DNA of 64,000 bases from Candidatus Aenigmatarchaeota archaeon (GCA_023134135.1 JAGLVB010000003.1:98218-162217); one strand, 5' to 3'. Shown: positions 1,807-64,000, counted from the first letter of the stretch. Notes: generated by a model from the sequence alone, not told the origin. Made by a program: numbers and translations.

Positions 1807-1869
1807 AGAAATGGGCAAAGGAGCAGGCAGCTTATTTAAAAACAAATAAGCATAAGTGTTTTCATATAG

Positions 1870-3213: not shown

Positions 3214-3263
3214 TAAAACAGAAATATTGAATGATACAACCTGTAAAGAAAATAGCAGGATGA

Positions 3264-3449
3264 CTACAAAAAGAGTATATTGAGTTGGTAGAAGTCTCGC
3301 AGAAGACAGCAAAAAGAGATTTATCTGATTTAAAAGACAAGAGAATTATCTTATATATAGGGTCGGCGAAGACAGGTTATTATATATTAAATGACCTTGT
3401 AAATGACCTTGTAAATGACCTTGTAAATGACCTTGTAAAAAGTGATTGA
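3264..3449 (+). pseudogene. Start-less remnant of a wHTH C-terminus resembling the tail of the upstream AlbA_2/HATPase_c_4 gene
   Basis: Frame opens after TGA at 3261-3263, has no ATG, and ends at TGA 3447-3449. Translation: LQKEYIELVEVSQKTAKRDLSDLKDKRIILYIGSAKTGYYILNDLVNDLVNDLVNDLVKSD. Its architecture parallels ...LLKQKNILYRIGSDRAGYWKIKD of the upstream gene. Confidence 0.5.
3390..3437 (+). repeat. Perfect 12-bp tandem repeat x4 (aatgaccttgta), NDLV x4 in the remnant frame
   Basis: Read directly. The minus-strand track ORF 3346..3531 (GHLQ x4) is its antisense shadow. Confidence 0.95.
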
Positions 3450-3547
3450 AAATGGGTTGTGTTTTGTTAGGAATCTGATAAATAAAAGGTTTAATGAAAT
3501 ATAAATAATTGAAATTATGGTAGAGAAACAATTAGAGGATAATAAAT

Positions 3548-6271
3548 ATGTTTGATAAAGAAAAAGCCAAAGAACAAGTAAAAATTCTTGTTGATAAATA
3601 CAACCGAGTTGCTGAAGCAGGCAAATTAAAGAGATATAAAGAAGAAGACACTAAAGCAGAATTTATTGAACCCTTATTTGAAGCATTGGGTTGGGATGTC
3701 AGAAATATAACCCATGATGACGAAGTTACAAGAGAAGATAAAGTATCTCGTGGAAGAGTGGATTATGCGTTTAGAATAGATGGAATTCCTAAATTATTTC
3801 TGGAAGCCAAAGCTATTAAAGAAGATTTAGAGAAAATTAAATTTGCTGAACAGGCAATTAACTATGCGTGGCATAAAGGAGCGACATGGGCGGTCTTGAC
3901 TGATTTTGAAGGTGTAATGGTTTTTAATGCAGAATGGAAATCTGTTAATCCCTTGCGAGATAGGCTTTTTTACATTAAATATGATGAATTTTTAGATAAA
4001 TTTGATCAACTTCTCCTATTGTCAAGAGAAAGTTTAGAAAAAGGATTACTTGATAAAGAAGCTGAAAAATGGGGTAAAAAAGCTAAAAAAATTCCAGTGG
4101 ATAAACAACTTCTTAGTGATTTGACTAAATTTAGAGAATTGCTTACAAAAAACATTTTGAAAAATAATCCTTCACGAAATTTATCTGGTGATGAATTGGA
4201 TGAAGTAGTCCAAAGAATTTTGGACAGGTTAATATTTATCAGAACTCTTGAAGATAAACAACTGGAAGCACCTGTCTTACAGGCTTTAATTAGAGAAGAT
4301 AAACACAAACGAGTTTATAAAAAACTCAGTTTATTGTTTAGTGAAATAAATGAGATTTACAATAGCAAATTATTTGCACATCATCTTTGTCAGGAATTAG
4401 TTATAGATGATGAAGTTTTAGAGAAAATAATTCATGGTTTGTTTAAAACATGCGATAACACAGTTCATTATGATTTTGGAGTTATTGATGCTGATGTCCT
4501 TGGTAATATTTACGAACAATATTTAGGACATATTCTTAAGAAAACGGATAAAAGAGCAAAACTTGCGGATGGAAAAACACACCGAAAAGAACAAGGAATT
4601 TATTATACTCCAACTTATGTAGTAGACTATATTGTTAAAAATACTGTTGGGGAACTGGCGAAAAGTAAAAAATTTGATTTGAAGAATATTAAGATTTTAG
4701 ACCCTGCATGCGGTTCAGGTTCTTTTTTGATGAAAGCATTTGATTATCTTGTTGCGTTGGATAAAAAAAGAAACAAAAACACAGACCAGACAAAACTTGA
4801 TTTGTCTGGCACTTCTGCAACCTATGGGAGAAAAATTGAGATATTGAAAAACAATATATTTGGGGTTGACTTAGACTCAAAAGCAACAGAAATTGCCCAA
4901 CTTAATTTGTTATTGAAAGCCGCTGAAAAAAAACACAGGTTGCCAACATTGCAGGAAAATATTAAAGTTGGGAATAGTTTAATTGATGATTCTGAAATTG
5001 CAGGAAATAAGGCTTTTAAGTGGAATGAAGAATTTGGAGAAATTATGGATGATAATGGGTTTGATGTTGTGATTGGAAATCCTCCTTATGTTTTTACAAG
5101 GGATGTTGAGTTCCTTGATGCTTTTAAAGAATATATTAAAAGCAATTATTTTAAAGGATATGATACCAGTTCAAAAAGTCATGCAAAACAAGCGGGTAAA
5201 GTAAATTTATATGCAGTATTTCTAATAAAAAGTATTTTATTGTTGAAAGAAAGAGGTCTTTTTGGATTTATAATACCTAATAATTTACTCAGAACCACCA
5301 CATATGATATTATTAGAAAATTCATATTAGATAACTGTAAGATTATTCAAATAGTGGATTTAGGTAGTGGTGTTTTTGAGGGAGTTACCGCTTCAACGAT
5401 AATACTTATTTTACAAAAAGAAGGCAGTGAAACTAAGAGAAATAAAAACAAAGTTATAATATATCCGGATATCAATAATTTATCAAACAAAAAAGAAATT
5501 GAACAAAAAGATTTCTTAGAGAATACAAGTTATACATTTAACATCACACTTGGTAAAAATGAAAGGACAATATTTGGTACAATAGAAAAAAATTCAATTT
5601 CATTGGGAAAAGAGACAAAATATATTATAGAAGGTATTGTTGGAAGTCGAAAAAAAGATGTTGTCGATTCACCGATTGATGATAAATGTAAAAAATTCTT
5701 AGTAGGTAAAGATATAGGTAGATATAAACTTGATTATAAGGATAAATATATTATTTACGATAGGGACAGATTACATCGGGCAAGACCCGAAGAAGTATTT
5801 ACATCTAATAAAATAATTATTCAAAGAATAAGTGGAGGGTGCATGCCATTAAGATGCGTTTTAGATAAGAAGAAATATTATACTTTTGCATCAACCAATC
5901 TTTTACTTTTAGGAGAAAACTCTAAATTTGATTTAATTTATGTAATGGCATTATTAAATTCAAAATTAATTAATTGGTATTATGTGAATAAATTTACTAA
6001 TAAATCAACCTTGACTGTAAATATTTCTAAAACCTTTTTGGAACAAATTCCAATTAAAAATATTTCAAAATTAGAGCAGAAAATAATTATTGAATTGGCA
6101 AACAAGATGCTCTCTATTAATGAAGATTTGATTAAACTGAAGAACAAAACAACAGATGAAAAAGCCAGATTAGAAAAAGAAGCTGAAAAAGTAGATAAAG
6201 AAATAGATAGAGAAGTTTATAAGATTTATGGTCTGACCAAAGACGAGATTAAGATTATTGAGGAAAAATGA
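3548..6271 (+). CDS. Type IIG restriction-modification enzyme (N-terminal PD-(D/E)xK nuclease fused to gamma-class N6-adenine DNA methyltransferase and specificity region)
   Basis: N-terminus EEDTKAEFIEPLFEALGWDV...GRVDYAF...LEAKA resembles an HsdR-N/Mrr-like nuclease core. DPACGSGSFL is SAM motif I and VIGNPPYV is motif IV. Long C-terminal TRD-like region; 907 aa in one polypeptide. Confidence 0.8.
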   Translation: MFDKEKAKEQVKILVDKYNRVAEAGKLKRYKEEDTKAEFIEPLFEALGWDVRNITHDDEVTREDKVSRGRVDYAFRIDGIPKLFLEAKAIKEDLEKIKFAEQAINYAWHKGATWAVLTDFEGVMVFNAEWKSVNPLRDRLFYIKYDEFLDKFDQLLLLSRESLEKGLLDKEAEKWGKKAKKIPVDKQLLSDLTKFRELLTKNILKNNPSRNLSGDELDEVVQRILDRLIFIRTLEDKQLEAPVLQALIREDKHKRVYKKLSLLFSEINEIYNSKLFAHHLCQELVIDDEVLEKIIHGLFKTCDNTVHYDFGVIDADVLGNIYEQYLGHILKKTDKRAKLADGKTHRKEQGIYYTPTYVVDYIVKNTVGELAKSKKFDLKNIKILDPACGSGSFLMKAFDYLVALDKKRNKNTDQTKLDLSGTSATYGRKIEILKNNIFGVDLDSKATEIAQLNLLLKAAEKKHRLPTLQENIKVGNSLIDDSEIAGNKAFKWNEEFGEIMDDNGFDVVIGNPPYVFTRDVEFLDAFKEYIKSNYFKGYDTSSKSHAKQAGKVNLYAVFLIKSILLLKERGLFGFIIPNNLLRTTTYDIIRKFILDNCKIIQIVDLGSGVFEGVTASTIILILQKEGSETKRNKNKVIIYPDINNLSNKKEIEQKDFLENTSYTFNITLGKNERTIFGTIEKNSISLGKETKYIIEGIVGSRKKDVVDSPIDDKCKKFLVGKDIGRYKLDYKDKYIIYDRDRLHRARPEEVFTSNKIIIQRISGGCMPLRCVLDKKKYYTFASTNLLLLGENSKFDLIYVMALLNSKLINWYYVNKFTNKSTLTVNISKTFLEQIPIKNISKLEQKIIIELANKMLSINEDLIKLKNKTTDEKARLEKEAEKVDKEIDREVYKIYGLTKDEIKIIEEK

Positions 6272-16379: not shown

Positions 16380-16484
16380 AATAATATGTTTAAGTATATA
16401 TAAATAAGACTCGTTTGTACTGTTTAAGTAATAAAACGCTGTTTTCTTTCTTTTTGCGAAGCAATGAGACCCTCAAATTAAGAT

Positions 16485-44880: not shown

Positions 44881-46608
44881 TCACTTTTTTAAAATTTCCC
44901 CTTTCCCATAAGGCACCACTTTCAGGAATTCATCCAGATTAATTTGTTTAATTTTCTCAACATCTTCTTTTTTTGCTTTTTCAAAGATTTTTAATTTGAT
45001 TAATTCTCCGAGTTCTTTTCCTTCTTTCCCCCCTGGAATCAAACCAACAAAATATTTTGCGTGTTTCTTGATTGATTCAAAAGGACCTTTTACAATTTCA
45101 AAATTATCATTAATACCAATATAAATGATTAATTCATTTCTCAGGAAATTCTTTTTACCGTAAATCATGAAAGATCCTTTTTTCACATGACCTTTACCGG
45201 TTTTTGAAACCTGATCCGGAGTCACCCAATAGACATCCGCGATTCCCAGTTTTGAAATCCAGAACCTTGAGTAGCACCCCACAAACTGCGCAGCTTCTTT
45301 GATTGCCTGTTCTGTGATTTTTTTTCCTTCGTTTCTGATGATTCCAAACGGAGAACCTATGATATGCGCGTGCAGGATAATATCATTTTTCTTGCAGTAT
45401 TTCTTGACCAGTTTCTCATTTGTGTCCGTGTCTTTTCCCGCGACAACAAGGAAATTGTCTGAGGTATGAAAATACCTGAAGTGTTCATACCATTGCAATT
45501 TAATATTTTGTTTTTTTGAAAATTTGCTTTCCTTAAGCTCAATTGGTTTTTCAATCAATAGTTCAATCCTTCTTATTTTCTCTCTCGCTTTCTTTGATTT
45601 TTTGTACAATTTATTTGTTTCTTCTTTCAAGTCAATGTTTATATTCAATTCTATTTTGTTCCCCTCAAGTTCAATAATTACAACGCCTTTTTTTTCAAGG
45701 ACATCTTTTATCGGAGTTATTATTTTTTTATTTTCTTTGTAAATCTTTATAGCATTTTCTACTTCTGATTTATGTTCAAAGAACAGGTCTGCCTGTTCCT
45801 TAAATTTTACAATTTCTCTTTTGTATTTTTCAAGAGTTTTTTTCTGGTTTTCCCGAATAAGTTCTGTTTTTGTTTTTCTTTCTTCTGAAAAAACTTCTTT
45901 GATTGCCAGAGAAAAACTTTCTTTTTTTTCAGACCTTAAGTTTTTCAAAGTATCCAATTCAAAAGGAGAAACAAAATATTCACTCGTCCTTTGGACGGTG
46001 CATCGTTGCTTCGCAACGAATGTAACATCATCTTTAAAATAAATCCGCGGGGAAATTTTTTTGTTTAATAATTCTTTCAGATTTTTATTTTTCAAGATTT
46101 CTTCAGTGTATATTTTTCCAATGTGAATTTTTTTCAGCAATTCTTCATCTTTTGTTTCAAGATAATTTTCAATATTTTCGCTTTCTATTTCAATGTATTT
46201 TTCTCCAACCCTGATTTTCCGGTCTTTGAATTCCCTCTGGAAAAGACACCCTGCTATTTTTCCTTCCTGACAAAGGATTATATTCCCTCTTCCAATGAAC
46301 TCAAGAATTACCTGATAATCAGAAAAATCCAGAACAAGGATTTTGTTGAATTTATCCTGTTCAATCTTAATTAATGTTTTCCCTTTTAGCCTTTCTGATA
46401 GGAAATTAATAAATCCTTTGGTTTCTTTTTCTTTGGGTTTTTCCGGGTCAAGATAACAAAAGTTTTTTCCCGCGACAAGGGAAAATATTCCTTTTTTTGG
46501 CTTGAATTCAAAAACAATGTTTTCTGATTTATAAATTCTCTTTAATTTGCATCTTTCAAGAATTCTTAGTTCTTTTACCAAATAATGAAAATCCAAAGGA
46601 GTTAACAT
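44881..46608 (-). CDS. NFACT-family protein (Rqc2/FbpA homolog, DUF814)
   Basis: The N-terminal NFACT-N-like region (LTPLDFHYLVKEL...), central coiled coil and C-terminal DIILHAHIIGSPFGIIR... fit the DUF814 pattern. Confidence 0.7.
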   Translation of the reverse strand: MLTPLDFHYLVKELRILERCKLKRIYKSENIVFEFKPKKGIFSLVAGKNFCYLDPEKPKEKETKGFINFLSERLKGKTLIKIEQDKFNKILVLDFSDYQVILEFIGRGNIILCQEGKIAGCLFQREFKDRKIRVGEKYIEIESENIENYLETKDEELLKKIHIGKIYTEEILKNKNLKELLNKKISPRIYFKDDVTFVAKQRCTVQRTSEYFVSPFELDTLKNLRSEKKESFSLAIKEVFSEERKTKTELIRENQKKTLEKYKREIVKFKEQADLFFEHKSEVENAIKIYKENKKIITPIKDVLEKKGVVIIELEGNKIELNINIDLKEETNKLYKKSKKAREKIRRIELLIEKPIELKESKFSKKQNIKLQWYEHFRYFHTSDNFLVVAGKDTDTNEKLVKKYCKKNDIILHAHIIGSPFGIIRNEGKKITEQAIKEAAQFVGCYSRFWISKLGIADVYWVTPDQVSKTGKGHVKKGSFMIYGKKNFLRNELIIYIGINDNFEIVKGPFESIKKHAKYFVGLIPGGKEGKELGELIKLKIFEKAKKEDVEKIKQINLDEFLKVVPYGKGEILKK

Positions 46609-53970: not shown

Positions 53971-54164
53971 GTCAAAAAATAAAGATATTAAATTTTAGTT
54001 AATTTGGTTGGGGTTGAAATGGAATTAGAAGAAAAAACACAAAAAAAGTTGATTCTCAAATACCCCGTCACTCTGTGGCGGGGAACTTTATTTTCTTTTA
54101 GAAAATGATGCATCGTTTTCGGAGAAAACGCATGAACGGCACCCATTTTTGCATCGCAAAATGA

Positions 54165-54284: not shown

Positions 54285-54447
54285 TGCCCCTTTTTTCGAA
54301 GAAAAAAGAAGGCATCATTTCATTCATTCGAAAAAGCGAATGATGCATCTTTTTCCTTTCGAAAAAGAATGTTTCTTAAAAAATGAATGAGATTAAAAAG
54401 ATTTTGGAAGAAGAGATTTAAGTATCTCTTTAAAAAAGGATTTTATT

Positions 54448-54666: not shown

Positions 54667-55071
54667 ATGGTAAATCATAGAGAGACTTTGGATAAACCCA
54701 TTCCCAGTTTAGAAGATATGATTGAATTTGCTTTTCTATTGCTTCTGCCGGTTTCTCTGGTAATTTCATGGATTGTTGATTTTAGCGCAGTGTTGATATG
54801 TTTTTTTCTGATTGCTTCTTCATTAGGTTTGCTCTTTTTTGCTTGTGTTGTTGTGGATTCAGAATACAATAAAGAGAAATATAGAATGGAATATTCTCTT
54901 TCAAATGGCATTTTTACATTCCTGACCCTTGTACTGGTAATCCCTTCAATAGTAATTACTTATCTGTTAAAAACTGAATTTCTTTTCCTACCAGTGTATG
55001 CTATTTTGTTAATTGGATTTTTTGGATTTCTTTGTAATAGGTGGATTAAGGGATTGGCGAATATTGGTTGA
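54667..55071 (+). CDS. Hypothetical four-TM membrane protein
   Basis: 134-aa ORF. An attC-like element starts 8 nt after its stop. Confidence 0.45.
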   Translation: MVNHRETLDKPIPSLEDMIEFAFLLLLPVSLVISWIVDFSAVLICFFLIASSLGLLFFACVVVDSEYNKEKYRMEYSLSNGIFTFLTLVLVIPSIVITYLLKTEFLFLPVYAILLIGFFGFLCNRWIKGLANIG

Positions 55072-55078
55072 TTGTGGG

Positions 55079-55161
55079 ATTTAACATATGCAGATATGCG
55101 AAGTTTGCGAAGCAAATTTGGATGGAGCCTGTAAGGCGGAGTCTCTTAATCGCTGTTATGT
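55079..55161. repeat. attC-like element 1 (ATTTAAC ... GTTATGT); left half of sub-family 2, right half of sub-family 1
   Basis: ATTTAAC-ATATGCAGATATGCGAAG-[TTTGC GAA GCAAA]-TTTGGATGGAG-[CCT GTA AGG]-CGGAGTCTCTTAATCGCT-GTTATGT. Confidence 0.6.
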
Positions 55162-55252
55162 CTGGGTGAGCGAAGCGAAAGTCTGCAAGACGTCCCCAAG
55201 AATTTTCGTAGAAAATTCGCAGTGTTTCTTCGGGTGCCGTTAATCACTAATA

Positions 55253-55260
55253 TTTATATA
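55253..55260 (+). promoter_or_regulatory. TATA-box-like TTTATATA, ending 22 nt upstream of the ATG at 55283
   Basis: The sequence and spacing fit an archaeal promoter with a short or absent leader. AT-rich background lowers specificity. Confidence 0.3.
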
Positions 55261-55282
55261 ATACAAAATAGTTAACTAAATT

Positions 55283-55927
55283 ATGAGTAATGATAAGGAA
55301 ATGTTTGAAAAAATATATGAAAAAGTAGCAGTCTGGACAGAATCCGAGCCACCTAAAGAATTGGTAAATTTAATTGAAAGTGGAAAAATTAAACCATGCA
55401 AAGTTCTTGATGTTGGATGTGGTGAAGGATTCTATGCTATTTATTTGGCTTCAAAAGGTTTTGATGTAACAGGAATAGATATATCAGAAAATGCTATAAA
55501 ACTTGCAAAAGGAAATGCGGTGAAACAAAGTGTAAAAATAAAATTTATGCCTTTTGATGTAGATGATTTAGATAAAATAAATGATAAATTTGATTTTGTA
55601 TTTGAATGGGCAATTTTGCATCATATAATGTCCGAACAAAGACAAAAATATGTAAAGAATATTAAAAGGATTTTGAATGTAGAAGGAAAATATTTATCAA
55701 TCTGTTTTAATAATCAAAATCCTGATTTCGGAGCGAAGGGCAAGAATTTAAGAATAATTCCAGAAGGTGCAAAAATGCCTGTAGGAACAAGATTATATTA
55801 TTCATCTTTTGAAGAGATGAAACAGTTATTTGAACCGCATTTTCGTGTAATTGAAGCCAAATTGATTACCATGACTGCGGGTAAAAAAGAACATATTGGT
55901 AACTATTTCTTTATGGAAAAGATGTAA
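55283..55927 (+). CDS. Class I SAM-dependent methyltransferase (small-molecule type)
   Basis: VLDVGCGEGFYAIYLASKGFDVTGIDIS (motif I and post-I); 214 aa. Confidence 0.75.
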   Translation: MSNDKEMFEKIYEKVAVWTESEPPKELVNLIESGKIKPCKVLDVGCGEGFYAIYLASKGFDVTGIDISENAIKLAKGNAVKQSVKIKFMPFDVDDLDKINDKFDFVFEWAILHHIMSEQRQKYVKNIKRILNVEGKYLSICFNNQNPDFGAKGKNLRIIPEGAKMPVGTRLYYSSFEEMKQLFEPHFRVIEAKLITMTAGKKEHIGNYFFMEKM

Positions 55928-55946
55928 AGGCACCAGAGGAAATTAA

Positions 55947-56036
55947 ACATAACATCGGGATTTAGAGAAGTCGGGCGTAGCCCGATTTGGATGGAGAAAT
56001 CTGCAAGACTTCGGAATCTCTTAATCGCTGTTATAT
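55947..56036. repeat. attC-like element 2 (ACATAAC ... GTTATAT)
   Basis: ACATAAC-ATCGGGATTTAGAGAAG-[TCGGGC GTA GCCCGA]-TTTGGATGGAG-[AAATCT GCA AGACTT]-CGGAATCTCTTAATCGCT-GTTATAT. The outer arms GATTTAGAGA/TCTCTTAATC pair at 9 of 10 positions. Confidence 0.65.
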
Positions 56037-56161
56037 TTTCCCGTCAGGGATTGATTTTTAGTGCAACGACGCTGAAAGCAAAAAATCAAAGTCGTATTTA
56101 AGTTTCCCAATAGAAGCGAGGTTTTTCCGAGTGTAACCTCAAAAGCTCTCTCATTGCCAAT

Positions 56162-57025
56162 CTAATCTGCATCAACGGGTACAGTAGATTTATCTTTTCT
56201 TAATAATAATCCCGCAACAAGAATTAAAGTTCCTCCAATAATCATGTTTAATGTGATTACTTCTTTGAAGAAGACAACACTAAAGATTAATGCTGCTGGA
56301 ACTTCCCAATATGTGAATAATGAATAATGGCTCATTTTTAATTTTTTCAACGCAAAAAAGAATAATAAGAATGCAATTATACCAACTAAAAATCCATATA
56401 ATGATGCAACACCTGTTTGAGTAATTGTTGGTATTGGTTTATTGATAAAAATGAATGGTAAAAAAACAATTGCACCTACAAGATTTTGATAAAATATTGT
56501 TTCTGTCTTGGTGTATTTTTTTAATCCTTTTTTGAAGATAACTACTGTAATTGAAAAAATTATTGCGGAAAGTAGCATGGCTGCCATTCCAATAAAGTCT
56601 TTATTTCCAAAACTAATTTCTTTATTCATATACATGACAGTAATTCCTAAAAAAGCCATACCAATAAGTAATGCAGTTCTTTTTGATACTTTTTCTTTCA
56701 AAAAAATTGCACCGAAGATTGAAGCAAAAATTGGCCATGTAAATAGAATTATTACTGCATTACCAATTGAGGTGTATAGATATGCAACGAAATAAAGAAA
56801 CATCATGGCAGCATTTAATCCAGAAGCAATTAACATGATTTTGTAATTTCCCTGAAATAATTTTATCTTCTTCCATTCAAAATAACCTAATAAAATTATT
56901 ACAGGAATGAACACTCTAAAGAATGTGATTGAAGTTGATGGGAGATTGAGGAGTTTAATAAAAACGCCACTTGATCCACTAATTGTTGCGGCAAAGATTA
57001 TTGCGAGATAAGGATTCAGCTTCAT
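56162..57025 (-). CDS. EamA/DMT-superfamily transporter
   Basis: 287 aa, about 10 TM helices, with the two-EamA-repeat architecture. Confidence 0.7.
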   Translation of the reverse strand: MKLNPYLAIIFAATISGSSGVFIKLLNLPSTSITFFRVFIPVIILLGYFEWKKIKLFQGNYKIMLIASGLNAAMMFLYFVAYLYTSIGNAVIILFTWPIFASIFGAIFLKEKVSKRTALLIGMAFLGITVMYMNKEISFGNKDFIGMAAMLLSAIIFSITVVIFKKGLKKYTKTETIFYQNLVGAIVFLPFIFINKPIPTITQTGVASLYGFLVGIIAFLLFFFALKKLKMSHYSLFTYWEVPAALIFSVVFFKEVITLNMIIGGTLILVAGLLLRKDKSTVPVDAD

Positions 57026-57106
57026 AATGATTACAATTGCGGGATTATTATATATAGTTTTCTAGTAGCCAGTATAAAGAGAGAGCCGTTCAGAAACTTA
57101 AATACG

Positions 57107-57211
57107 ATTGCACATTGCTATTAAAAGAAGTTCGGTTTTGAGGCAACCCACAAAACCGAATTTGGATGGAGAAGTCTGCAAGACTTCGGAACTTCTTAAT
57201 CGCTGTTAGTT
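57107..57211. repeat. attC-like element 3 (left box degenerate: ATTGCAC ... GTTAGTT)
   Basis: ATTGCA-CATTGCTATTAAAAGAAG-[TTCGGTTTTG AGGCAACCCA CAAAACCGAA]-TTTGGATGGAG-[AAGTCT GCA AGACTT]-CGGAACTTCTTAATCGCT-GTTAGTT. Compared with AATTGCAACTAACAT of elements 4 and 5, the ACTAA of the left box is missing. Confidence 0.55.
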
Positions 57212-57344
57212 GCGTCGGAGTGAAACGAGGACCAAGGGTTAGTGCAACGGTCGGCGAAGCCGAAACCCGAAGAGTTATTTTCAAGGGCGTTCTATTAAAT
57301 GAGCGAATGCGATACATTAAGAACAAGAATTAAAAGGCGAATTT

Positions 57345-57908
57345 TTATTCCAATTTCATATAAGAATATTTTCCTAAAGTAAATTTATTATCAGTAATTA
57401 ATTGTTCAACTTGTTGTTTATGATTTTCATATGAATTTTGAATTATTAAATCAATACATACTAATGGATTTTCATTTTCAGATTCAACAGTTCTAACAAA
57501 AATATTTGAAGCATTAGTTGGTTCTCCTATTTGATAAGCTAAATCTTTGATTTGTTCTAATTGATATGGTGGTTTTATTCTAATTCCAATATAATTACCC
57601 TTCAAGTCACCCTTTTTAACTATTTCAAGTGCATCTTCGGACTCAATAGATACATCACATCCTCTTAATTTTTCTTCAAGGTCAACCTGCTTTCTAAAAA
57701 GATTAACAATATCTTTTGAAGAATATTTATCATCAACATTTCCATCAATAAAAACACCAGATTCTAAAATATTTTTATTATATCGAAATAATGATCTGAA
57801 AAATCCTAATTCAACATTATCTAAATGAAAATTCGTAAAACTACTATTTACCTCATCAAAAGTTTTCCCTTCAAAATAAACAAATCCTCTAATTTTTTGC
57901 ATAATCAT
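57345..57908 (-). CDS. Hypothetical protein
   Basis: 187-aa ORF. No family recognised. Confidence 0.4.
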   Translation of the reverse strand: MIMQKIRGFVYFEGKTFDEVNSSFTNFHLDNVELGFFRSLFRYNKNILESGVFIDGNVDDKYSSKDIVNLFRKQVDLEEKLRGCDVSIESEDALEIVKKGDLKGNYIGIRIKPPYQLEQIKDLAYQIGEPTNASNIFVRTVESENENPLVCIDLIIQNSYENHKQQVEQLITDNKFTLGKYSYMKLE

Positions 57909-57984
57909 ATATAATTAATAGATTAATATAAAACTTTCGAAAAAATTCGCCTTCTTTACTTTTTTAGTCCTTGAAAATAATTGC

Positions 57985-58083
57985 AACTAACATATGCAGA
58001 TATGCGAAGTTTTTGCGAGTATCAATTGTTCCAAAGCAAAAATTTGGACGGAGCGAAGCGGAGTCGTATATTTGCTGTTATGT
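57985..58083. repeat. attC-like element 4 (AACTAAC ... GTTATGT), sub-family 2
   Basis: AACTAAC-ATATGCAGATATGCGAAG-[TTTTTGC ...19 nt... GCAAAAA]-TTTGGACGGAG-[C GAA G]-CGGAGTCGTATATTTGCT-GTTATGT. The arms GCAGATATGCGA/TCGTATATTTGC pair with two G:T positions. Confidence 0.6.
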
Positions 58084-58140
58084 TCTCATCCAAAGGATGA
58101 CGAGGAGCGAAGCGACGAAGAGTAAAATTTCCATTTCCTG

Positions 58141-58190
58141 ATATATTCTGCGAAGCAGACAATATGTCCGCAGGACGGGGGGAGTTCTTT
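58141..58190. repeat. 50-bp module copy A (ATATATTCTGCGAAGCAGAC..TGTCCGCAGGACGGGGGGAGTTCTTT)
   Basis: Differs at 3 positions from 63333-63382. Contains the CTGC-GAA-GCAG and GTCC-GCA-GGAC mini-hairpins. Confidence 0.85.
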
Positions 58191-58207
58191 TTATGAGATT
58201 AATAAGA

Positions 58208-58432
58208 TCAAAATATTACTTCTTTAAGAATATCTGCATGAAATCCACCGTTGGATAGAAAATAAGGCGGGTCTGCAAAAATCATATTAACTGAATTTGC
58301 AGGTAGTGAATTAAGAACCTTTAGACAGTCGTCATGGAATAACTGTATGTTTTCTGAGTTGAAGTATGGTTTAACCATATATCTATTTGTTTGGAATTGG
58401 TTAATAAAAAGTTTGTTGTTTAATCTCGGCAA
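58208..58432 (-). pseudogene. Truncated beta-class N6A/N4C DNA methyltransferase (N-terminal ~70 aa only)
   Basis: ...IQLFHDDCLKVLNSLPANSVNMIFADPPYFLSNGGF, then 10 unrelated codons and a stop. The TRD and SAM-binding motifs expected downstream are absent. The truncation abuts the repeat module at 58141-58197. Confidence 0.7.
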
Positions 58433-58437
58433 AACAA

Positions 58438-59508
58438 TTATTTACCAATTATTATAACTTCTCGATATCCTTTTCCATTATTTCTATTAAGTTTATATGA
58501 ATATGGTATGGATTTTGTTATCACTGTTTTTTTGTATTTTTTCATTAATTTGACAATTGTTTGTATAGTTGGCTTTCCTTTATTTCCGTAAGATACAACT
58601 ATTGTGGAATCGGAGAATTTACGAAAAAGATTATCAAAATTACTTATTAAATTACAATCCCATGTATTTTTTTTGAAAATGAATGGTTTATTTACTCTTG
58701 AATTATCAATATTATGTTCCCATGTATTGTAATTCATAATACCTTCTAAAAAATGATACATCTCTGCATAGTTTTGAGGATGACAAGAATCTTTCCTACA
58801 ATAAGGCGGATCAAAATATACTAGATCAAATTTATCATTGATATTGAATATGTCTGTATTAAGTACCATATTGTTTTTTCCATTGTCAAAAACAAACTTT
58901 GAATATTCTTTATTGAATTTAATAAAATGATCCTTGAATGGTTTATCCCATGTTTTTTTATTGCCAAAACTTCTCTTAACATTGCTCGTTCTAAGATTCA
59001 AATTTTTTCTATGAAATAGATTAAATGGTCTTTTTGAAAGACAAGATTGAAACAAATTGTGATATGCTAACGCTTTTTTGTATCTTAGTGTTTTACCGTT
59101 ATATAACAAAGACAAATCTTCAATATTTTTTATCATTTTATCTAATAAGATATTTTCTTCATCAAGAAAATAAATACCATTATACATTTTACTTATTAGT
59201 TTTGGATATGATTCTGTTTTTCTTTCATTAAAAATAAATTCGATGTCTTTCACATTAAGTTTTACATTTTTATTCTCAATTAAAGCTATTCCCGTCTGAC
59301 TATTTGATTTAAGTATATCATTAAATGAGACTTCTTTACCCATACTTTTAAAAAGAAAACCAATACTACCTGAACCCCCAAAAGCATCTAAAACAGTTTC
59401 AAATTCAAGAGTTACAAGGATATTTTTTAACCAAGACACCATTCTTCTTTTGCTTCCTTGATATCTTGTTGAAGGAGCATCAAATCTTTCATTATCTTTT
59501 TTCTTCAT
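58438..59508 (-). CDS. D12-class N6-adenine DNA methyltransferase
   Basis: STRYQGSKRR, LDAFGGSGS (SAM loop) and VYFDPPYC (motif IV); 356 aa. Confidence 0.8.
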   Translation of the reverse strand: MKKKDNERFDAPSTRYQGSKRRMVSWLKNILVTLEFETVLDAFGGSGSIGFLFKSMGKEVSFNDILKSNSQTGIALIENKNVKLNVKDIEFIFNERKTESYPKLISKMYNGIYFLDEENILLDKMIKNIEDLSLLYNGKTLRYKKALAYHNLFQSCLSKRPFNLFHRKNLNLRTSNVKRSFGNKKTWDKPFKDHFIKFNKEYSKFVFDNGKNNMVLNTDIFNINDKFDLVYFDPPYCRKDSCHPQNYAEMYHFLEGIMNYNTWEHNIDNSRVNKPFIFKKNTWDCNLISNFDNLFRKFSDSTIVVSYGNKGKPTIQTIVKLMKKYKKTVITKSIPYSYKLNRNNGKGYREVIIIGK

Positions 59509-59509
59509 A

Positions 59510-60292
59510 TTAAATTACACTTTGTATTTTTTGAATATAATCTAGGTCAACAATTGCTTTATTTAAGATAGAATCTTGCTCCGAAGATGTCATCTTTTTG
59601 AAAATATCAGGAAAAGCTAAAATTAATGATATCATAATATAACACTGCAAATCATTACAGTTTTTTATCCATTCCTGAAATTTCGCTTCATCATACTTTG
59701 GAGAATAACGACCTGTCGAAGTTTGGAAATGATCCGCACTAGTATGAATGGATTTTGAAAGTTGAGCATATAATCTTTTTAATAGATCTCCTGTTTTCCT
59801 TCCTGAGTAAATTTTTTTATTGGCATTACATTGCTGATCAAATGTGTCTATTTTACTAAGTTGTTTAAAATAAGTGAAGTCAGAACCCCAAACATATTTT
59901 TGTTTTACATTGATATACCATTCATTGTCGTTAAGCCACCAGTCATATTCTATTTTGTGGTCGATAAAGTAGATCATTCTTAGAGCGGATTCCATTTGAG
60001 ATCGTAAACACATATTGGCATATTTATAGAGTCCCAATAACGCAAAATGCAATCCATTTATTCCATCAGCGAAAATTTCAGGCATTATTTTTTCAGCAAT
60101 TTTATCTCCATGAAATTTGTTTTTCCATTTTCCATATAAATTCAGTATTTCTAATACTTTCTCTATGTTATTGTCTTGATCTATTATAGACTTTTCCCAA
60201 TTTTGTTTTCTCCATATCTTTTGTGCATTATGCACAGTTTTTATCAATGTAGGTAAATTGTTGATTTGAAATCTAACCATTATTATCACCAT
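59510..60292 (-). CDS. Unknown helical protein with HEPN-like Rx6H motif
   Basis: LRSQMESALRMIYFIDH contains RMIYFIDH, which fits the Rx4-6H spacing. Also LSKSIHTS. No family recognised. Its start (60292 or 60280) overlaps the upstream gene. Confidence 0.4.
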   Translation of the reverse strand: MVIIMVRFQINNLPTLIKTVHNAQKIWRKQNWEKSIIDQDNNIEKVLEILNLYGKWKNKFHGDKIAEKIMPEIFADGINGLHFALLGLYKYANMCLRSQMESALRMIYFIDHKIEYDWWLNDNEWYINVKQKYVWGSDFTYFKQLSKIDTFDQQCNANKKIYSGRKTGDLLKRLYAQLSKSIHTSADHFQTSTGRYSPKYDEAKFQEWIKNCNDLQCYIMISLILAFPDIFKKMTSSEQDSILNKAIVDLDYIQKIQSVI

Positions 60293-61016
60293 TTATAAAG
60301 AAAGAAACAGAACAAAGTGAGTTATTGCTATCAATTGTTAAAATATGGTCTTCAATCTCCGCATTTACATTATACTTTTGAGCAAGTTGCTGAAAAAATT
60401 CTTTTAAAGTTAAGATTTTATCTGCAATAGAATTAATATTATTACTCTTGGATAAATTTAAACCATGCCATGATGATACCAGGAATTGATCTGAGTTATT
60501 CTTTATTGTTGTTGTATTGACAGCCGTTTGTTCTAAGAGTGTTGTATACATGACTATAAAACTACTGTTTCCGAATCTTTTTTGCTCACTAAAAATTTTT
60601 TCAATACTTTTAAGTTCTTTTTCTATTCGTCCATTTAATATTTCAATTTCTTGTGAAGAAAAATCAATGTTTAAAATGTGAAACGGGAGACGATCAAAGA
60701 TTTTATGTTGACCACAATTTAAGATAGTCTCTTCAAATTCAATTTCATCAATTACTTCGTTTACTTTTCCTTCAGCATCTAAACTTAAAGCCTCAATTGA
60801 ATTTTTACACCAAGCAAGTATATGGATTTTTGAAGAAATACATTCTTCATTAAGAATTCTTATTTCATCCATGTTTCTAGAGTTGGTTAAAGTTAAAACC
60901 TTTAAGTTCTTGTTTTTTATTTTTCTCGGATTTATTACATGACCTATATCTTTGAATTTATTTTTCCAGAAATTATTGGCAATGTCGGTTTTTAACCGTA
61001 ATATAGTTTCTTCCAT
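60273..61016 (-). CDS. Unknown protein (faint Rossmann/MTase-like motif order without a Gly-rich loop)
   Basis: LKVLTLTNSRNMDEIRIL ... LPFHILNIDFSSQ loosely recalls the motif I/IV positions of Trm1/TcmP-like folds. This is very tentative. Confidence 0.3.
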   Translation of the reverse strand: MEETILRLKTDIANNFWKNKFKDIGHVINPRKIKNKNLKVLTLTNSRNMDEIRILNEECISSKIHILAWCKNSIEALSLDAEGKVNEVIDEIEFEETILNCGQHKIFDRLPFHILNIDFSSQEIEILNGRIEKELKSIEKIFSEQKRFGNSSFIVMYTTLLEQTAVNTTTIKNNSDQFLVSSWHGLNLSKSNNINSIADKILTLKEFFQQLAQKYNVNAEIEDHILTIDSNNSLCSVSFFINGDNNG

Positions 61017-61025
61017 GATATTTAC

Positions 61026-62711
61026 CTAGAACATCTTTTCGAATAATCTGTATATTTTTTGCATTGCAGAAATAGATATTTTTTCTTCTTTTGCAATGAA
61101 TTGAAAACCAATCACAAATTCCATAATAATCGTATTGTCCAAGGCAATATTGAAAATTGGATGGTTTTTATTGAATACAACTGTTTTTTTCTGTATATCT
61201 AATTTACAGATAGGATCAATTTTCGTTGTTATATTCCATTGATCATATTTAACAGAAAATTCTTTGTTATTGACTCTGATTTTTTCAAAAAGTGATGGAT
61301 GTTCCTCATGAATAATTACTTTTTTTTGTTCTTTGTCTATTTCTATGGGATTCTCATCTATATTTCTTATTGACCTTTTTTTCTCAATAGTGAATCCTTT
61401 TTTGCTTGCTATATCGCTAATTTTCTTTGAGAGGGTTACTATTTCTTTCTTATCTTTCCTTACTATCGGTGCTTTCGGGATTCTTAAATTAGTTTTATCA
61501 AATTTAATGATTCCTACTGATTTTAAATCTTGAATGATTTTTTCTTGATTTGGTAGTTTTTCTAACGTTTCATATATTGCTTTATCTTCTTTTGCAGTGT
61601 TTTGAAACTCATGATCCCATTTTGTTAATTTGTCTCTAAAGAACTCATATATTTTTGATACTTCTTCAGTATAATAGAAACCATCCCTATCAAGCATTAA
61701 ATCATTATTTAATCCTTCAACAATATGAATTTCTCCCGTAAAATAATTTAATTTACCTAACATACGACCTTTCAATTTGATAACATCAAAATCTGTAGGT
61801 AAACCTATTCCTACATCGTTTAATCTAATTTGAAATCCTCTTGCTTCCTGTGGTCTGATAGAAGTAAAAGGAGACAAAATTGTGTATTTCAATATAATGT
61901 TTCCAAACTTTTGTTCTCCTTTTTCTATTATTTCTGATCTTTTATTATTGGCTCCTTCAGGCACATTCCTAAATAATTCTTCTCCGTCAAACCACACTCT
62001 TAAAGGAATCCTATTTTTTAGATAGAAAAAATCTTTTAATTCTTTATAAGATTCAGGGAATTGTAACGGTAAATATTGTGATAGCTCCCATTTCGTCTTT
62101 TCAAGCCAACCAAATCGTTCAATTGAACCACAACCCTCTTTTTCATATTCTTTCATTTGTGTAATTGTGCGATCTTCTATATTTTCAAGAAGTACAATTG
62201 TTTCTCCTTGTTTTTTTGGCAATAAGCTCGGACATATTTTATAATCTATATTTTCAATATTGTTATTTAACACCCAAGAATTATCTTGATAATATTCACT
62301 TACTTTAATAATTACTTCAATAGCATTTTCTTCTCCTGCTTTTTTACTTACAATTCGAATTGTTTTACAATAGGGAAATACCGCCAAGAAACCAACTCCA
62401 AACTGCCCTATTCTTTTTCTACCCAAACCAATTGAAGCACCTGTCCGGGGGGTGGTTTTACCAATTGTTAAAAGTTTATTTTCAATATCTATTTTATCCA
62501 TCCCTTTTCCATTATCTTTAATAATGAGTTTCTTCGATTTGAAATCTAAATTTATCTTTATCTCTGTAGCTTCAGCATCATAAGCGTTAGAAACAAGTTC
62601 TTTTATTGCTCGCGAAAAATTCTTATAAAGACCAATACTTAAATGACTCACTACTTTTGAATCCACTTTTATAGAAAGTTTGCCTTTTTCAATGATTTTT
62701 TGATTAATCAT
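61026..62711 (-). CDS. GHKL-superfamily (MORC/MutL-like, HATPase_c_3) ATPase
   Basis: N box ELVSNAYDAEATEIKI, G1 box IKDNGKGM and G2 box GQFGVGF. A long C-terminal region may hold an S5-like transducer. The likely start is ATG 62711 (the track uses GTG 62720). Confidence 0.8.
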   Translation of the reverse strand: MINQKIIEKGKLSIKVDSKVVSHLSIGLYKNFSRAIKELVSNAYDAEATEIKINLDFKSKKLIIKDNGKGMDKIDIENKLLTIGKTTPRTGASIGLGRKRIGQFGVGFLAVFPYCKTIRIVSKKAGEENAIEVIIKVSEYYQDNSWVLNNNIENIDYKICPSLLPKKQGETIVLLENIEDRTITQMKEYEKEGCGSIERFGWLEKTKWELSQYLPLQFPESYKELKDFFYLKNRIPLRVWFDGEELFRNVPEGANNKRSEIIEKGEQKFGNIILKYTILSPFTSIRPQEARGFQIRLNDVGIGLPTDFDVIKLKGRMLGKLNYFTGEIHIVEGLNNDLMLDRDGFYYTEEVSKIYEFFRDKLTKWDHEFQNTAKEDKAIYETLEKLPNQEKIIQDLKSVGIIKFDKTNLRIPKAPIVRKDKKEIVTLSKKISDIASKKGFTIEKKRSIRNIDENPIEIDKEQKKVIIHEEHPSLFEKIRVNNKEFSVKYDQWNITTKIDPICKLDIQKKTVVFNKNHPIFNIALDNTIIMEFVIGFQFIAKEEKISISAMQKIYRLFEKMF

Positions 62712-62847
62712 TTTGCTCACCCTTTAATTGTTCTTCCATCATAATTTCAAATTGTCTTGATATAAGCCACCCTTTTCTTTTACAATAACTTCTATAGTCA
62801 TTATACAACTTGGTTTTAACTCTTAAAGTTATATTTTTTGATTCCAT
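62704..62847 (-). CDS. Ribbon-helix-helix (CopG/Arc-like) DNA-binding protein, 47 aa
   Basis: Hand-translated: MESKNITLRVKTKLYNDYRSYCKRKGWLISRQFEIMMEEQLKGEQND*. It has a beta-strand (ITLRV) followed by two helices. Its stop overlaps the ATPase start (ATGATTAA). Below the track cutoff. Confidence 0.6.
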   Translation of the reverse strand: MESKNITLRVKTKLYNDYRSYCKRKGWLISRQFEIMMEEQLKGEQND

Positions 62848-62866
62848 AATTATCACCATAATTCAA

Positions 62867-62887
62867 ATATACACAAATGTATATAAA
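62867..62887 (-). promoter_or_regulatory. TATA-like box (TTTATATA, 62880-62887 on minus) overlapped by the perfect palindrome ATATACA-caaa-TGTATAT (62867-62884)
   Basis: Read directly. The box ends 32 nt upstream of the RHH ATG (62847). The palindrome is a candidate RHH operator. Confidence 0.4.
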
Positions 62888-62976
62888 TATTGCTATTTTA
62901 GAGTTTTTATCTATAGACATATCCTTTTCAAAGAAAAAGACGATTTGTCCGTAGGAACTCCCTTAATAATATAGAA

Positions 62977-63019
62977 AAATTTGGGAGAGCGAAAGCGAAC
63001 CTCTTAACCTTGGTTATAT
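62977..63019. repeat. attC-like half-site (right half only, ends GTTATAT)
   Basis: AAATTTGGGAGAG-[C GAAA G]-CGAACCTCTTAACCTTG-GTTATAT parallels the right halves of elements 1-5. No matching left arm was seen. Confidence 0.45.
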
Positions 63020-63149
63020 AAAGTGCGAAGCATTTCCTTGTTGTTTCGGGTGGTCGGTTAAGAGAAGTTTTTCTATCGAGCGAAGCGAGACAATCTGTGC
63101 GTAGCACTGGAATTCCCCCTTTTTTTTAGGAAAACTTAAACACAATTGC

Positions 63150-63244
63150 AACTAACATCGGGCATTAAGAGAAGTTTTTTGCGTAGCAAAAAATTTGGGT
63201 GGAGAAGTCTGCAAGACTTCGTAACCTCTTAATGTTTGTTATGT
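63150..63244. repeat. attC-like element 5 (AACTAAC ... GTTATGT)
   Basis: AACTAAC-ATCGGGCATTAAGAGAAG-[TTTTTTGC GTA GCAAAAAA]-TTTGGGTGGAG-[AAGTCT GCA AGACTT]-CGTAACCTCTTAATGTTT-GTTATGT. The outer arms CATTAAGAG/CTCTTAATG pair perfectly. Confidence 0.65.
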
Positions 63245-63332
63245 CTGTCGGAGCGAAGCGGAGACCAAGGGATAGCCGCAGGCGGTTTTTGCGAAGCAAA
63301 AAATCCCGCAGAGTTAAGTTTAAGTTTTCCGT

Positions 63333-63382
63333 ATATATTCTGCGAAGCAGACTATCTGTCCGTAGGACGGGGGGAGTTCTTT
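63333..63382. repeat. 50-bp module copy B
   Basis: ATATATTCTGCGAAGCAGACTATCTGTCCGTAGGACGGGGGGAGTTCTTT. See copy A. Confidence 0.85.
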
Positions 63383-63470: not shown

Positions 63471-64000
63471 ATGACTATGGAAGGAAACATAGAATTGTAT
63501 AAAGAACTTTTAGGGTTTTGTGAAGAAATTAGAGAAAAACAAAAGTTTAAATTTGATTCTAACCTGAATTTTTCCAATTTTAATGAAAAATGTTATATTG
63601 AGATGTATTTAAAGAATAAAGTGTCAACTAGACCTCTAGTGTTTAAAAAAGGCTCACTTCCCGAGTTAAAGGATGTTTGTTCTAAGTGTGCAATGTTTCA
63701 TACTTCAAAAAGGAATGAGATGATTAAAGGTTTCGATATACAATTTGGTCATTGGTTTGAAAAAGCATTTAGAGATTTTTTGTTAAATAAAGGTATCAAA
63801 ACGGAGAAAAAAGGATTTCCTTTTCCAGATATTGAAGTTATTAAGAACGGTGTTCCCGTTGCATATTTTGAACTAAAGTATATTAGATCTCCTTTTGTTT
63901 ATGCCAATAACCAACTAAAGATGGAGAGATGGTGTTATGAATGCTCGCTGACTTTGGATGTTGGAGATAAATTATCTAAGCAAAGAACGAAGATAGAAGA
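63471..64000 (+). CDS. PD-(D/E)xK restriction-endonuclease-like protein, 3' end outside window
   Basis: ATG at 63471; I saw no stop before the window end. ...KKGFPFPDIEVIKNGVPVAYFELKYI... is a classical PD-x(n)-ExK arrangement. Not in the ORF track because the frame is open-ended. Confidence 0.5.
   Translation, partial: MTMEGNIELYKELLGFCEEIREKQKFKFDSNLNFSNFNEKCYIEMYLKNKVSTRPLVFKKGSLPELKDVCSKCAMFHTSKRNEMIKGFDIQFGHWFEKAFRDFLLNKGIKTEKKGFPFPDIEVIKNGVPVAYFELKYIRSPFVYANNQLKMERWCYECSLTLDVGDKLSKQRTKIE

Follow-up and report, generated by a model that had tools for sequence, protein, structure and literature searches.

The subject of this study is a run of five structured DNA elements, each about 100 nt long, that occupy the gaps between accessory genes near one end of a 64-kb stretch from a Candidatus Aenigmatarchaeota archaeon (GCA_023134135.1, JAGLVB010000003.1:98218–162217). 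We call the whole 64 kb the window, and all coordinates are in its numbering. Neighbouring sequence was taken from contig DAOVKR010000001.1 of metagenome-assembled genome (MAG) GCA_030631635.1, which extends 4.76 kb beyond the window to the contig end at coordinate 68760 and brings the total to 68.76 kb. An original prediction, made from the sequence alone, had proposed that the elements are attC-like sites delimiting the cassettes of an archaeal integron. The host is AT-rich (about 31% G+C) and encodes a geranylgeranyl reductase, an NFACT protein and a phosphoenolpyruvate synthase.

The elements and the genes between them

The same five elements emerge from a direct-repeat search, from pattern searches and from a covariance model of the element family. 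The model, which we call R1, was run without filters and with e3 outside its training set; in the 64 kb it matched these five only, all on the + strand, with E values from 1e-12 to 1e-24 and nothing else at E ≤ 1. Pattern searches of the window returned four matches to an 18-mer where 0.08 were expected, and three to a 29-mer where 0 were expected. The sites are as follows (ssDNA, single-stranded DNA).

55068–55171, +, site e1: R1 61.9 bits, E 9e-13; sequence and alignment
55936–56046, +, site e2: R1 103.2 bits, E 2e-23; the ssDNA fold pairs both ends, z = −2.9
57095–57221, +, site e3: R1 66.5 bits; 5' TAAC box deleted
57974–58093, +, site e4: R1 70.5 bits; in the alignment, a subtype with a GCAGATATGCGA/TCGTATATTTGC inner stem
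63139–63254, +, site e5: the best R1 match, 107.8 bits, E 1.5e-24; ssDNA fold z = −5.0

Much of what had been described at these places proved accurate. The five elements are where the original prediction put them, all in one orientation; direct reading returned its 5' boxes (ATTTAAC, ACATAAC and AACTAAC) and its 3' boxes (GTTATGT, GTTATAT and GTTAGTT), and the alignment bore out a deletion in the third element, which is without its 5' TAAC box. The two pairs it had singled out, GTTATGT with ACATAAC and GTTAGTT with AACTAAC, are exact reverse complements. Its distances of 8 and 20 nt from stop codon to element are right for the open reading frames (ORFs) at 54667–55071 and 55283–55927, and the elements are indeed GC-enriched, at 37–44% G+C against about 30% in their surroundings. 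From e1 to e4 the start-to-start distances are 868, 1159 and 879 nt on one strand, followed by a gap of 5.2 kb to e5, so that the integron yardstick of at least two co-oriented sites less than 4 kb apart describes e1 to e4. Two further elements lie past the window, at 67833–67934 and 68551–68659, and the array therefore extends to the contig end.

Independent assemblies of the sample end in or beside the array: the NCBI contig at 68760, scaffold_24 of the European Nucleotide Archive at 62012, and Logan contigs at 56000/57150 and 55993. Of the Logan ends, two lie within e2 and one within e3. Under-assembly of this family's arrays in MAGs is likely.

Between the sites lies the following cargo.

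55283–55927, +, S-adenosylmethionine (SAM)-dependent methyltransferase (Pfam Methyltransf_25, 1.5e-21), in a cassette inverted relative to the array
56162–57025, −, EamA-family transporter (Pfam EamA, 2e-34)
57345–57908, −, 187-aa protein without a Pfam or PADLOC match
58208–62849, −, restriction–modification-like multi-gene operon (Pfam; PADLOC MTase_II 2e-47, REase_II 2e-17)
63471–64000, +, start of the next cargo block, which continues past the window to 67505 (positions 1256–5290 of locus L001)

The operon comprises a 74-aa methyltransferase fragment, a D12/type II methyltransferase, proteins of 260 and 247 aa, a GHKL-ATPase protein that resembles type II restriction enzymes, and a small ORF. 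The 74-aa ORF (58208–58432, −) matches just the N-terminal 45 or so residues of type II DNA methyltransferases; it sits at the 3' end of the operon cassette and is probably a gene fragment. The block at 63471–67505 encodes a 257-aa protein without a family match, a 482-aa protein of the tRNA-guanine transglycosylase (TGT) family and two N4/N6 DNA methyltransferases; it might be a DpdA-like DNA-modification/restriction module rather than a housekeeping archaeosine TGT.

Fold and cassette boundaries

The elements belong to a family that reaches well beyond this contig. A scan with an exact pattern, one genome per species, returned at least 118 loci, and the family counts that follow refer to the loci listed from it (L numbers). 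By our estimate about 25 matches to the pattern would be expected by chance, and four or five of those found do have the look of chance matches. Most hosts are Woese-, Pace-, Nano-, Aenigm- and Nanohalarchaeota (DPANN), anaerobic methanotrophic archaea (ANME)/Methanosarcinales and Patescibacteria, joined by a few other bacteria. Because several matches lie on contigs of 0.9–2.6 Mb, they are not all binning artefacts. A profile search with nhmmer counted 258 copies; none of 72 multi-copy loci has mixed orientation, and the median start-to-start spacing is 970 bp. Among 2.9 million viral contigs there was a single match, judged to be chance, and we take the family to be absent there. Homology between the window and the other loci is limited to the elements and their accessory modules, while the cargo differs. 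The inner part of e3, for example, is about 85–90% identical over 138–149 nt to Woesearchaeota/Methanosarcinales MAG copies (blastn: L031, L113, L021 and L057), and e5 shares 91% identity across 230 nt with the Aenigmatarchaeota MAG L042.

Members of the family fold in one way. An outer stem, TAACA/TGTTA, is followed by an asymmetric bulge of 2–5 nt on the 5' arm of the + strand, by an inner stem of 9–12 bp ending in GAAGT, and by a three-way junction. The junction carries one variable hairpin and then a conserved ATTTGGRYGGAG, the RY of which pairs with a downstream RY and so encloses a second hairpin. In e1 the bulge next to the TAACA/TGTTA outer stem measures 3 nt and the inner stem 12 bp, and two small hairpins with GNA loops flank AAATTTGGATGGAG. 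Our alignment combines four window elements with 65 from other genomes, 69 sequences in all. Compensatory changes occur in 18 of 30 pairs, and 95.3% of paired cells are complementary, as against 82.1% in column shuffles (a level reached by 0 of 500) and 30–53% when partners are slid by 1–3 columns. The inverse core boxes RYYYAAC...GTTRRRY are in place, with a G|TT cassette boundary, and TAAC and GTTA are invariant across the 69 family members. The attC-like fold originally proposed therefore stands in part: R and L stems are present and covary, but the conserved extrahelical bases of attC have no match. Where an attC hairpin has R and L boxes, an unpaired spacer and L''/R'' extrahelical bases, here the spacer is mostly paired and the inner arm has no extrahelical G.

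Three observations point to the strand that folds. Of 257 triloops counted in 201 elements of other genomes, 190 are GNA on the model strand, against none on the opposite strand; the window array has about 18 GNA triloops on the + strand and 0 on the −; and G·T-type cells outnumber A·C-type cells by 52 to 24, one G·T pair being almost invariant. The + strand of the window is accordingly taken as the folding strand. Hairpins of the type d(C-GNA-G) are unusually stable in DNA, from which we infer that the element folds as DNA, with ssDNA as its substrate. Isolated GNA-loop hairpins, such as TTGCGAAGCAA, also occur in intergenic positions outside the array, at 16454–16464 (+), 46003–46019 (−), 54114–54130 (+) and 54290–54308 (+); these are possibly terminators, and we make no link between them and the element family.

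If recombination at the boxes had built the array, the two halves of a site should lie at the two ends of a cassette. The original prediction had found this in two units, and we scaled the comparison to 105 neighbouring pairs, setting the 4 nt after GTTA against the 4 nt before the next TAAC, across the cargo. Mean complementarity is 2.84 of 4, with 56 of the 105 pairs perfect, against 1.51 ± 0.10 for random pairing (maximum 1.79 in 2000 trials) and 1.55 for the same comparison within a single element. Such complementarity across the cargo is as expected of one hairpin site split by recombination at its boxes, and unlike self-contained repeats.

Each element is followed by further conserved hairpin modules, on which the original prediction was silent.

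56037–56096, +, accessory hairpin module with motif AGTGCAACG, after e2 (survey of the motif family)
57212–57277, +, accessory hairpin module with motif AGTGCAACG, after e3; 87% identity to L046 over 57160–57333
58134–58190, +, third accessory module (TCTGCGAAGCAGA ... GTCCGCAGGAC GGGGGG), copy 1 (direct repeat D7)
63326–63382, +, third accessory module, copy 2; 91% identical to 58134–58190 and present too in L042, L118 and L021

The AGTGCAACG motif lies downstream of 81 of 186 family elements, at a median distance of 30 nt, and the stem that flanks it covaries (complementarity 7.8 of 9 against 5.8 in a shuffled control). A composite of site and accessory module, some 310 nt long, is 97–99% identical in three MAGs and 86% in a fourth locus, next to different cargo (L022:2201–2512, L057:5365–5677, L106:3784–4096 and L089:3255–3557). 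To judge from these sequences it looks like a portable tail joined to different genes, which bears on how cassettes might form.

Homologous cassettes in different genomes also bear on the boundaries. An isochorismatase-like cassette (L074:912–1646, L075:935–1657 and L018:2126–2839) is common to Nanoarchaeota, Woesearchaeota and Saccharibacteria MAGs at 86–90% nucleotide identity. The three-way homology begins exactly at G|TTATATTCAAT, behind three different upstream sites, and breaks downstream inside the AGTGCAACG accessory module. If the binning is right, this cassette would have been shared across domains. In a second set (L088:6100–7800 and L096:3270–4950) homology runs from the upstream GTTA to the downstream TATAAC, and the interior of the downstream site differs.

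The array-linked recombinase and the reading direction

No integrase had been found in the window, and we agree; the check past its right edge to 68760 was also negative. The relatives are better endowed. We searched the 8-kb genome loci by tblastn with an IntI1 query that matches NF011946 over its full length at 799 bits. A tyrosine recombinase was found in 17 loci, as 14 complete genes (about 260–287 aa) and three partial matches. All 14 complete genes share the strand of the model orientation and flank the array on one fixed side; they are divergent from the cassettes, and their starts adjoin the array.

These array-linked enzymes score best against the XerA profile NF040815 (202–250 bits), and the integron-integrase profile matches them in two stretches only, below its cut-off. 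In the alignment the IntI1 insertion is absent and the catalytic R, K, H, R, H and Y are kept. The closest structure in the Protein Data Bank is Pyrococcus abyssi XerA (4A8E, 168 bits), and a C-terminal (V/I)(K/R)SPLD is common to these enzymes, IntI1 and VchIntIA, not to the XerA structures. A length of about 270–300 aa without an IntI insertion is the mark of the Xer family, and it is seen here in the relatives only.

The association also holds in reverse. In 80 metagenome loci encoding relatives of the recombinase, R1-family matches lie only upstream of the closest short recombinases, in seven of the 11 best loci and always on the + strand. A proxy model of the canonical attC (described below) has matches only beside three of nine long IntIs, on the − strand; these long IntIs are 50–68% identical to IntI1 without gaps. 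As the two site models segregate with the short and the long recombinases, each enzyme type has its own site type. The geometry differs too: the top strand of a canonical attC is opposite to the integrase strand, whereas family sites lie on the recombinase's own strand, so that the strand on which the family model is oriented, the + strand of the window, is the counterpart of the canonical bottom strand.

Between recombinase gene and array lies an attI-like box, ATTGnnnnTAAC, upstream of the start codon in 12 of 14 loci and mostly 78–135 nt from it. Some 13 nt past this box is an AAGT box like that in the 5' arm of the sites, often inside a short hairpin. In L086, L005, L103 and L070 the attI-like box is followed by a 6-nt spacer and a perfect hairpin of 8–10 bp, for example GGCATCAT-AAGTAAAATA-ATGATGCC. 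Judged by such pairing, the attI-like site may itself fold.

The outer arm recalls dif. Its consensus, ATTGnATATAA, has one mismatch in 11 to the P. abyssi XerA dif arm, ATTGGATATAA|TCGGCC. The 28-bp dif core consists of two inverted 11-bp arms and a 6-bp spacer; the inner arm of a family site is not an inverted repeat of the outer, so a two-arm core is found only in the folded form or in the attI-like site. Xer enzymes cut where arm meets spacer, and a crossover at TAA|C would fall at that arm–spacer junction.

A 175-nt module of another kind is found in the window and at the array heads of relatives.

62952–63126, +, 175-nt 'leader' module, containing a half-site previously placed at 62977–63019

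It sits at the 5' end of the operon cassette, read on the − strand, was not detected by R1, and contains inner-arm sequences in permuted order (CTCTTAACC ... GGTTAAGAGAAGT). Homologues lie at 67640–67819 (L001 942–1121) and in five or more other genomes; in L118 and L103 the module comes next after the attI-like box that adjoins the recombinase gene. The half-site is thus real, but it is part of this larger conserved composite, and we reject the idea of a truncated site. The − strand carries TTTATATAA, which resembles an archaeal TATA box. Possible roles of the module are those of a cassette leader, promoter or accessory binding region.

Reading direction follows from two lines of evidence. 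The longest ORF between neighbouring sites opposes the + reading of the original prediction 77 times and agrees with it 32 times; with the recombinase geometry, this means that the array is to be read on the − strand, as cargo, then accessory modules, then its site. The earlier assignment of the + strand as the top strand is therefore rejected. With it goes an objection that the prediction had raised against itself, namely antisense cargo, since with the + strand as bottom strand most cargo is sense: the EamA gene, the 187-aa gene and the operon and, past the window, two methyltransferase genes and a 168-aa gene. The SAM methyltransferase and the genes starting at 63471 are inverted. Running from high to low coordinates, the array has e1 as its final site; e2, which comes after the EamA gene on the − strand, we assign to the EamA cassette as its attC-like site, and the array's head, missing here, is expected beyond 68760.

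Competing explanations and known systems

In our view the window probably covers that end of an integron-like cassette array at which no recombinase is encoded, the array being one of a non-canonical family that occurs mainly in DPANN, ANME/Methanosarcinales and Patescibacteria. On this reading each element of about 100 nt would act as a recombination site in folded single-strand form, with the + strand folding. An outer arm like that of dif, (ATTGnnnn)TAACA / TGTTA(nnnn), a 2–5-nt bulge and a 9–12-bp inner arm ending in GAAGT would lead to a three-way junction at the tip, with two small GNA-triloop hairpins around the conserved ATTTGGRYGGAG. A XerA/IntI-like recombinase of about 270 aa, without the IntI insertion and encoded at the array head in relatives, would bind both arms, and a single strand would be exchanged at TAA|C (G|TTA on the complement). 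Cassettes would then move between elements and the attI-like site (ATTGnnnnTAAC and an AAGT box like that of the inner arm) beside the recombinase gene. A cassette, read on the − strand, would consist of cargo, accessory hairpin modules and then the site, the cargo being mostly of restriction–modification type or otherwise accessory. Of all this, the family, its structure, the architecture of the arrays, the complementarity of split sites and the linkage to a recombinase are observed, while catalysis, the point of cleavage, the ssDNA substrate and activity in this genome today are inferred.

Several observations weigh against this. Pfam and tblastn found no tyrosine recombinase in the 68.76 kb, nor is there an attI-like end, and the array may be a fossil. 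Among the inter-site ORFs, 29% are inverted. Complementarity across the four testable window junctions is 3/4, 4/4, 1/4 and 0/4, so that two of the four fail. The bulged bases (2–5) lie on the arm opposite to that of the canonical attC extrahelical bases, and the extrahelical G is absent. In both cassette sets homologous cargo is followed by different sites, with breaks at the 5' box (TATAAC|A) or in the AGTGCAACG module, which a simple model of a site travelling with its cargo does not predict. As homologous cassettes do not always keep their site, we do not claim strict travel of that kind; the swapped sites could stem from exchange at both boxes or else from conserved motifs undergoing homologous exchange. 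In the contig, the overlapping assemblies and the Logan contigs we saw neither presence/absence polymorphism nor a circular junction at the window locus. The two long assemblies are identical across their overlap, the short Logan contigs break inside e2 and e3, and the contigs recovered by exact-protein look-up held no alternative arrangement. Some of the Proteobacteria and Spirochaetes matches, finally, are on short contigs and could be mis-binned.

The strongest competitor has the host's housekeeping XerA build the array at or near the chromosomal dif, in the manner of tandem integrative mobile elements exploiting Xer (IMEX) or CTX-phage-type integration, with no dedicated enzyme. The array-linked recombinase does score as a XerA equivalog, two of six tested lying above the curated cut-off, its nearest structural relative is XerA, and the outer arm is one position in 11 off a characterised XerA dif arm; the use of folded ssDNA sites by Xer is, moreover, established for CTX phage. 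Yet the attI-like site does not consist of two dif arms in inverted repeat, the sites stand upstream of seven of the 11 closest metagenomic relatives, and the C-terminus of the enzyme is like that of IntI. Archaeal dif sites do not adjoin xerA (PMC2958812), and yet the gene is at the array head in 14 of 14 complete-gene loci. We think this explanation unlikely.

Less promising again is a canonical cluster of attC sites lacking an integrase (CALIN), in which ordinary attCs would be served by a classical IntI elsewhere in the genome. Boxes of the RYYYAAC/GTTRRRY type, an imperfect hairpin, lengths of 83–105 nt and the array layout all fit, and archaeal CALINs are documented, Nanoarchaeota included (Ghaly et al. 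2022, PMC9668308). The original prediction had named an attC covariance model as a means of checking the integron idea. Ours, a proxy, was made from eight published attCs (seven archaeal and attC_aadA7) and run with filters off on both strands. It ranked first all four held-out attCs of two class 1 integrons (18.4–25.9 bits) and found no window element at E ≤ 10 on either strand. In the 80 metagenome loci, family sites are never beside long IntIs, nor canonical sites beside short recombinases, and no integrase with an IntI insertion is encoded in the 68.76 kb or among the array-linked recombinases of relatives. Older contigs with three or four family sites each (PCYA01, BDTJ01, QMZS01, MZXQ01 and PFOR01) are missing from the IntegronFinder table of the 2022 archaeal survey, which quality filtering could also explain, and the supplement of the archaeal-integron paper (PMC9668308) has none of the conserved motifs of the family. 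We judge a CALIN improbable and reject canonical attC identity: the proxy site model detects none of the five sites, there is no extrahelical G, and the enzymes of the relatives are without the integrase insertion. What survives of the integron interpretation is a set of folded sites delimiting cassettes in an integron-type layout; what does not is its strand assignment and its membership of the canonical family.

Could the elements be structured RNAs of the accessory genes (terminators, stabilisers of 3' untranslated regions or small RNAs) and not recombination sites? Strong covariation, a conserved single-stranded motif, a conserved G-U-type pair and a position downstream of most cargo ORFs would suit such a role. 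The folding strand is, however, antisense to 70% of neighbouring ORFs, and Rfam 15 has no gathering-score match in the window and just noise at E ≤ 5 in the array. GNA triloops are exceptionally stable in DNA rather than RNA, and RNA elements would leave the complementarity across cargo, the fixed recombinase linkage and the homology breaks at the boxes unexplained. This we regard as very improbable.

Palindromic repeats spreading by themselves into intergenic regions, whether miniature inverted-repeat transposable elements, repetitive extragenic palindromes or IS200/IS605 derivatives, are scarcely credible: they too are short, structured, intergenic and multi-copy, with near-identical copies in distant taxa, but instead of dispersed copies with self-complementary termini and target-site duplications we see copies always clustered and co-oriented, confined to one array with none in the other 55 kb of the window, complementarity between ends across cargo but only chance-level complementarity between the ends of a single element (1.55 against 1.51 for random pairing), no linked transposase, and among the 2.9 million viral contigs only that one chance match.

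Taken more broadly, the probable integron-like array could represent a second, unrecognised class of gene capture, in which a Xer-type recombinase without the IntI insertion but with an IntI-like C-terminus acts on folded sites that have a dif-like outer arm and a three-way junction. Such a class would be widespread in the reduced genomes of DPANN and Patescibacteria and in ANME, with cassettes apparently shared across domains, and it could be a state between Xer/dif and classical integrons; we regard this proposal as evenly balanced. Our literature search found no published description of the family, although its thin coverage of subscription journals makes this weak evidence of novelty. Standard integron finders probably undercount cassette arrays in DPANN and candidate phyla radiation organisms. 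The defence and restriction–modification genes of these tiny genomes may belong to an exchangeable pool, and near-identical sites, together with the cassette shared by archaea and Saccharibacteria, point to a route of cross-domain gene flow among episymbionts.

The likeness to integron arrays (PMC9668308) is one of architecture. Co-oriented structured sites about 1 kb apart lie between mostly promoterless accessory genes rich in restriction–modification functions. The AAC...GTT inverse core boxes have a G|TT boundary, the site is split over the cassette ends, a folding strand is implied, and a divergent tyrosine recombinase gene is separated from the array by an attI-like site. The differences are in the parts. 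Family sites go unrecognised by the canonical-attC proxy, have no inner-arm extrahelical G and carry their bulge on the other arm. They end not in the variable loop of attC but in a conserved three-way junction with an invariant ATTTGGRYGGAG, and 100–200 nt of extra conserved hairpin modules precede each site in the − strand reading. Their partner recombinase is without the IntI-specific insertion that defines integron integrases.

CTX-phage-type IMEX offer another parallel. There XerCD acts on an ssDNA site formed by intrastrand pairing, and tandem arrays can accumulate; a Xer-type enzyme, a folded ssDNA site and tandem arrays would thus be common to both. Unlike phage genomes that integrate at a host dif, however, the cassettes are gene-sized and carry no replication or virion genes, and viral contigs lack the family. 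The pdif modules of Acinetobacter plasmids likewise place small cargo between Xer-type sites, which are 28-bp duplexes in alternating orientation, whereas family sites are co-oriented, long, structured and covarying.

Archaeal XerA/dif (PMC2958812; 4A8E) is the closest in enzyme and arm. The recombinase is nearest to XerA in sequence and length, ATTGnATATAA is nearly ATTGGATATAA, and the break would come where arm joins spacer. But dif is a single 28-bp duplex inverted repeat away from xerA, whereas here there are many hairpin sites of about 100 nt in an array headed by the gene, the second arm of each site is unrelated to the first, and the recombinase ends in an IntI-like C-terminus. Integrons are the standard example of gene capture, and what defines their integrase is an insertion by which extrahelical attC bases are read. 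The same array logic, with a Xer-like enzyme, dif-like arms and no extrahelical-base code, would provide a point of comparison for the origin of integrons from Xer.

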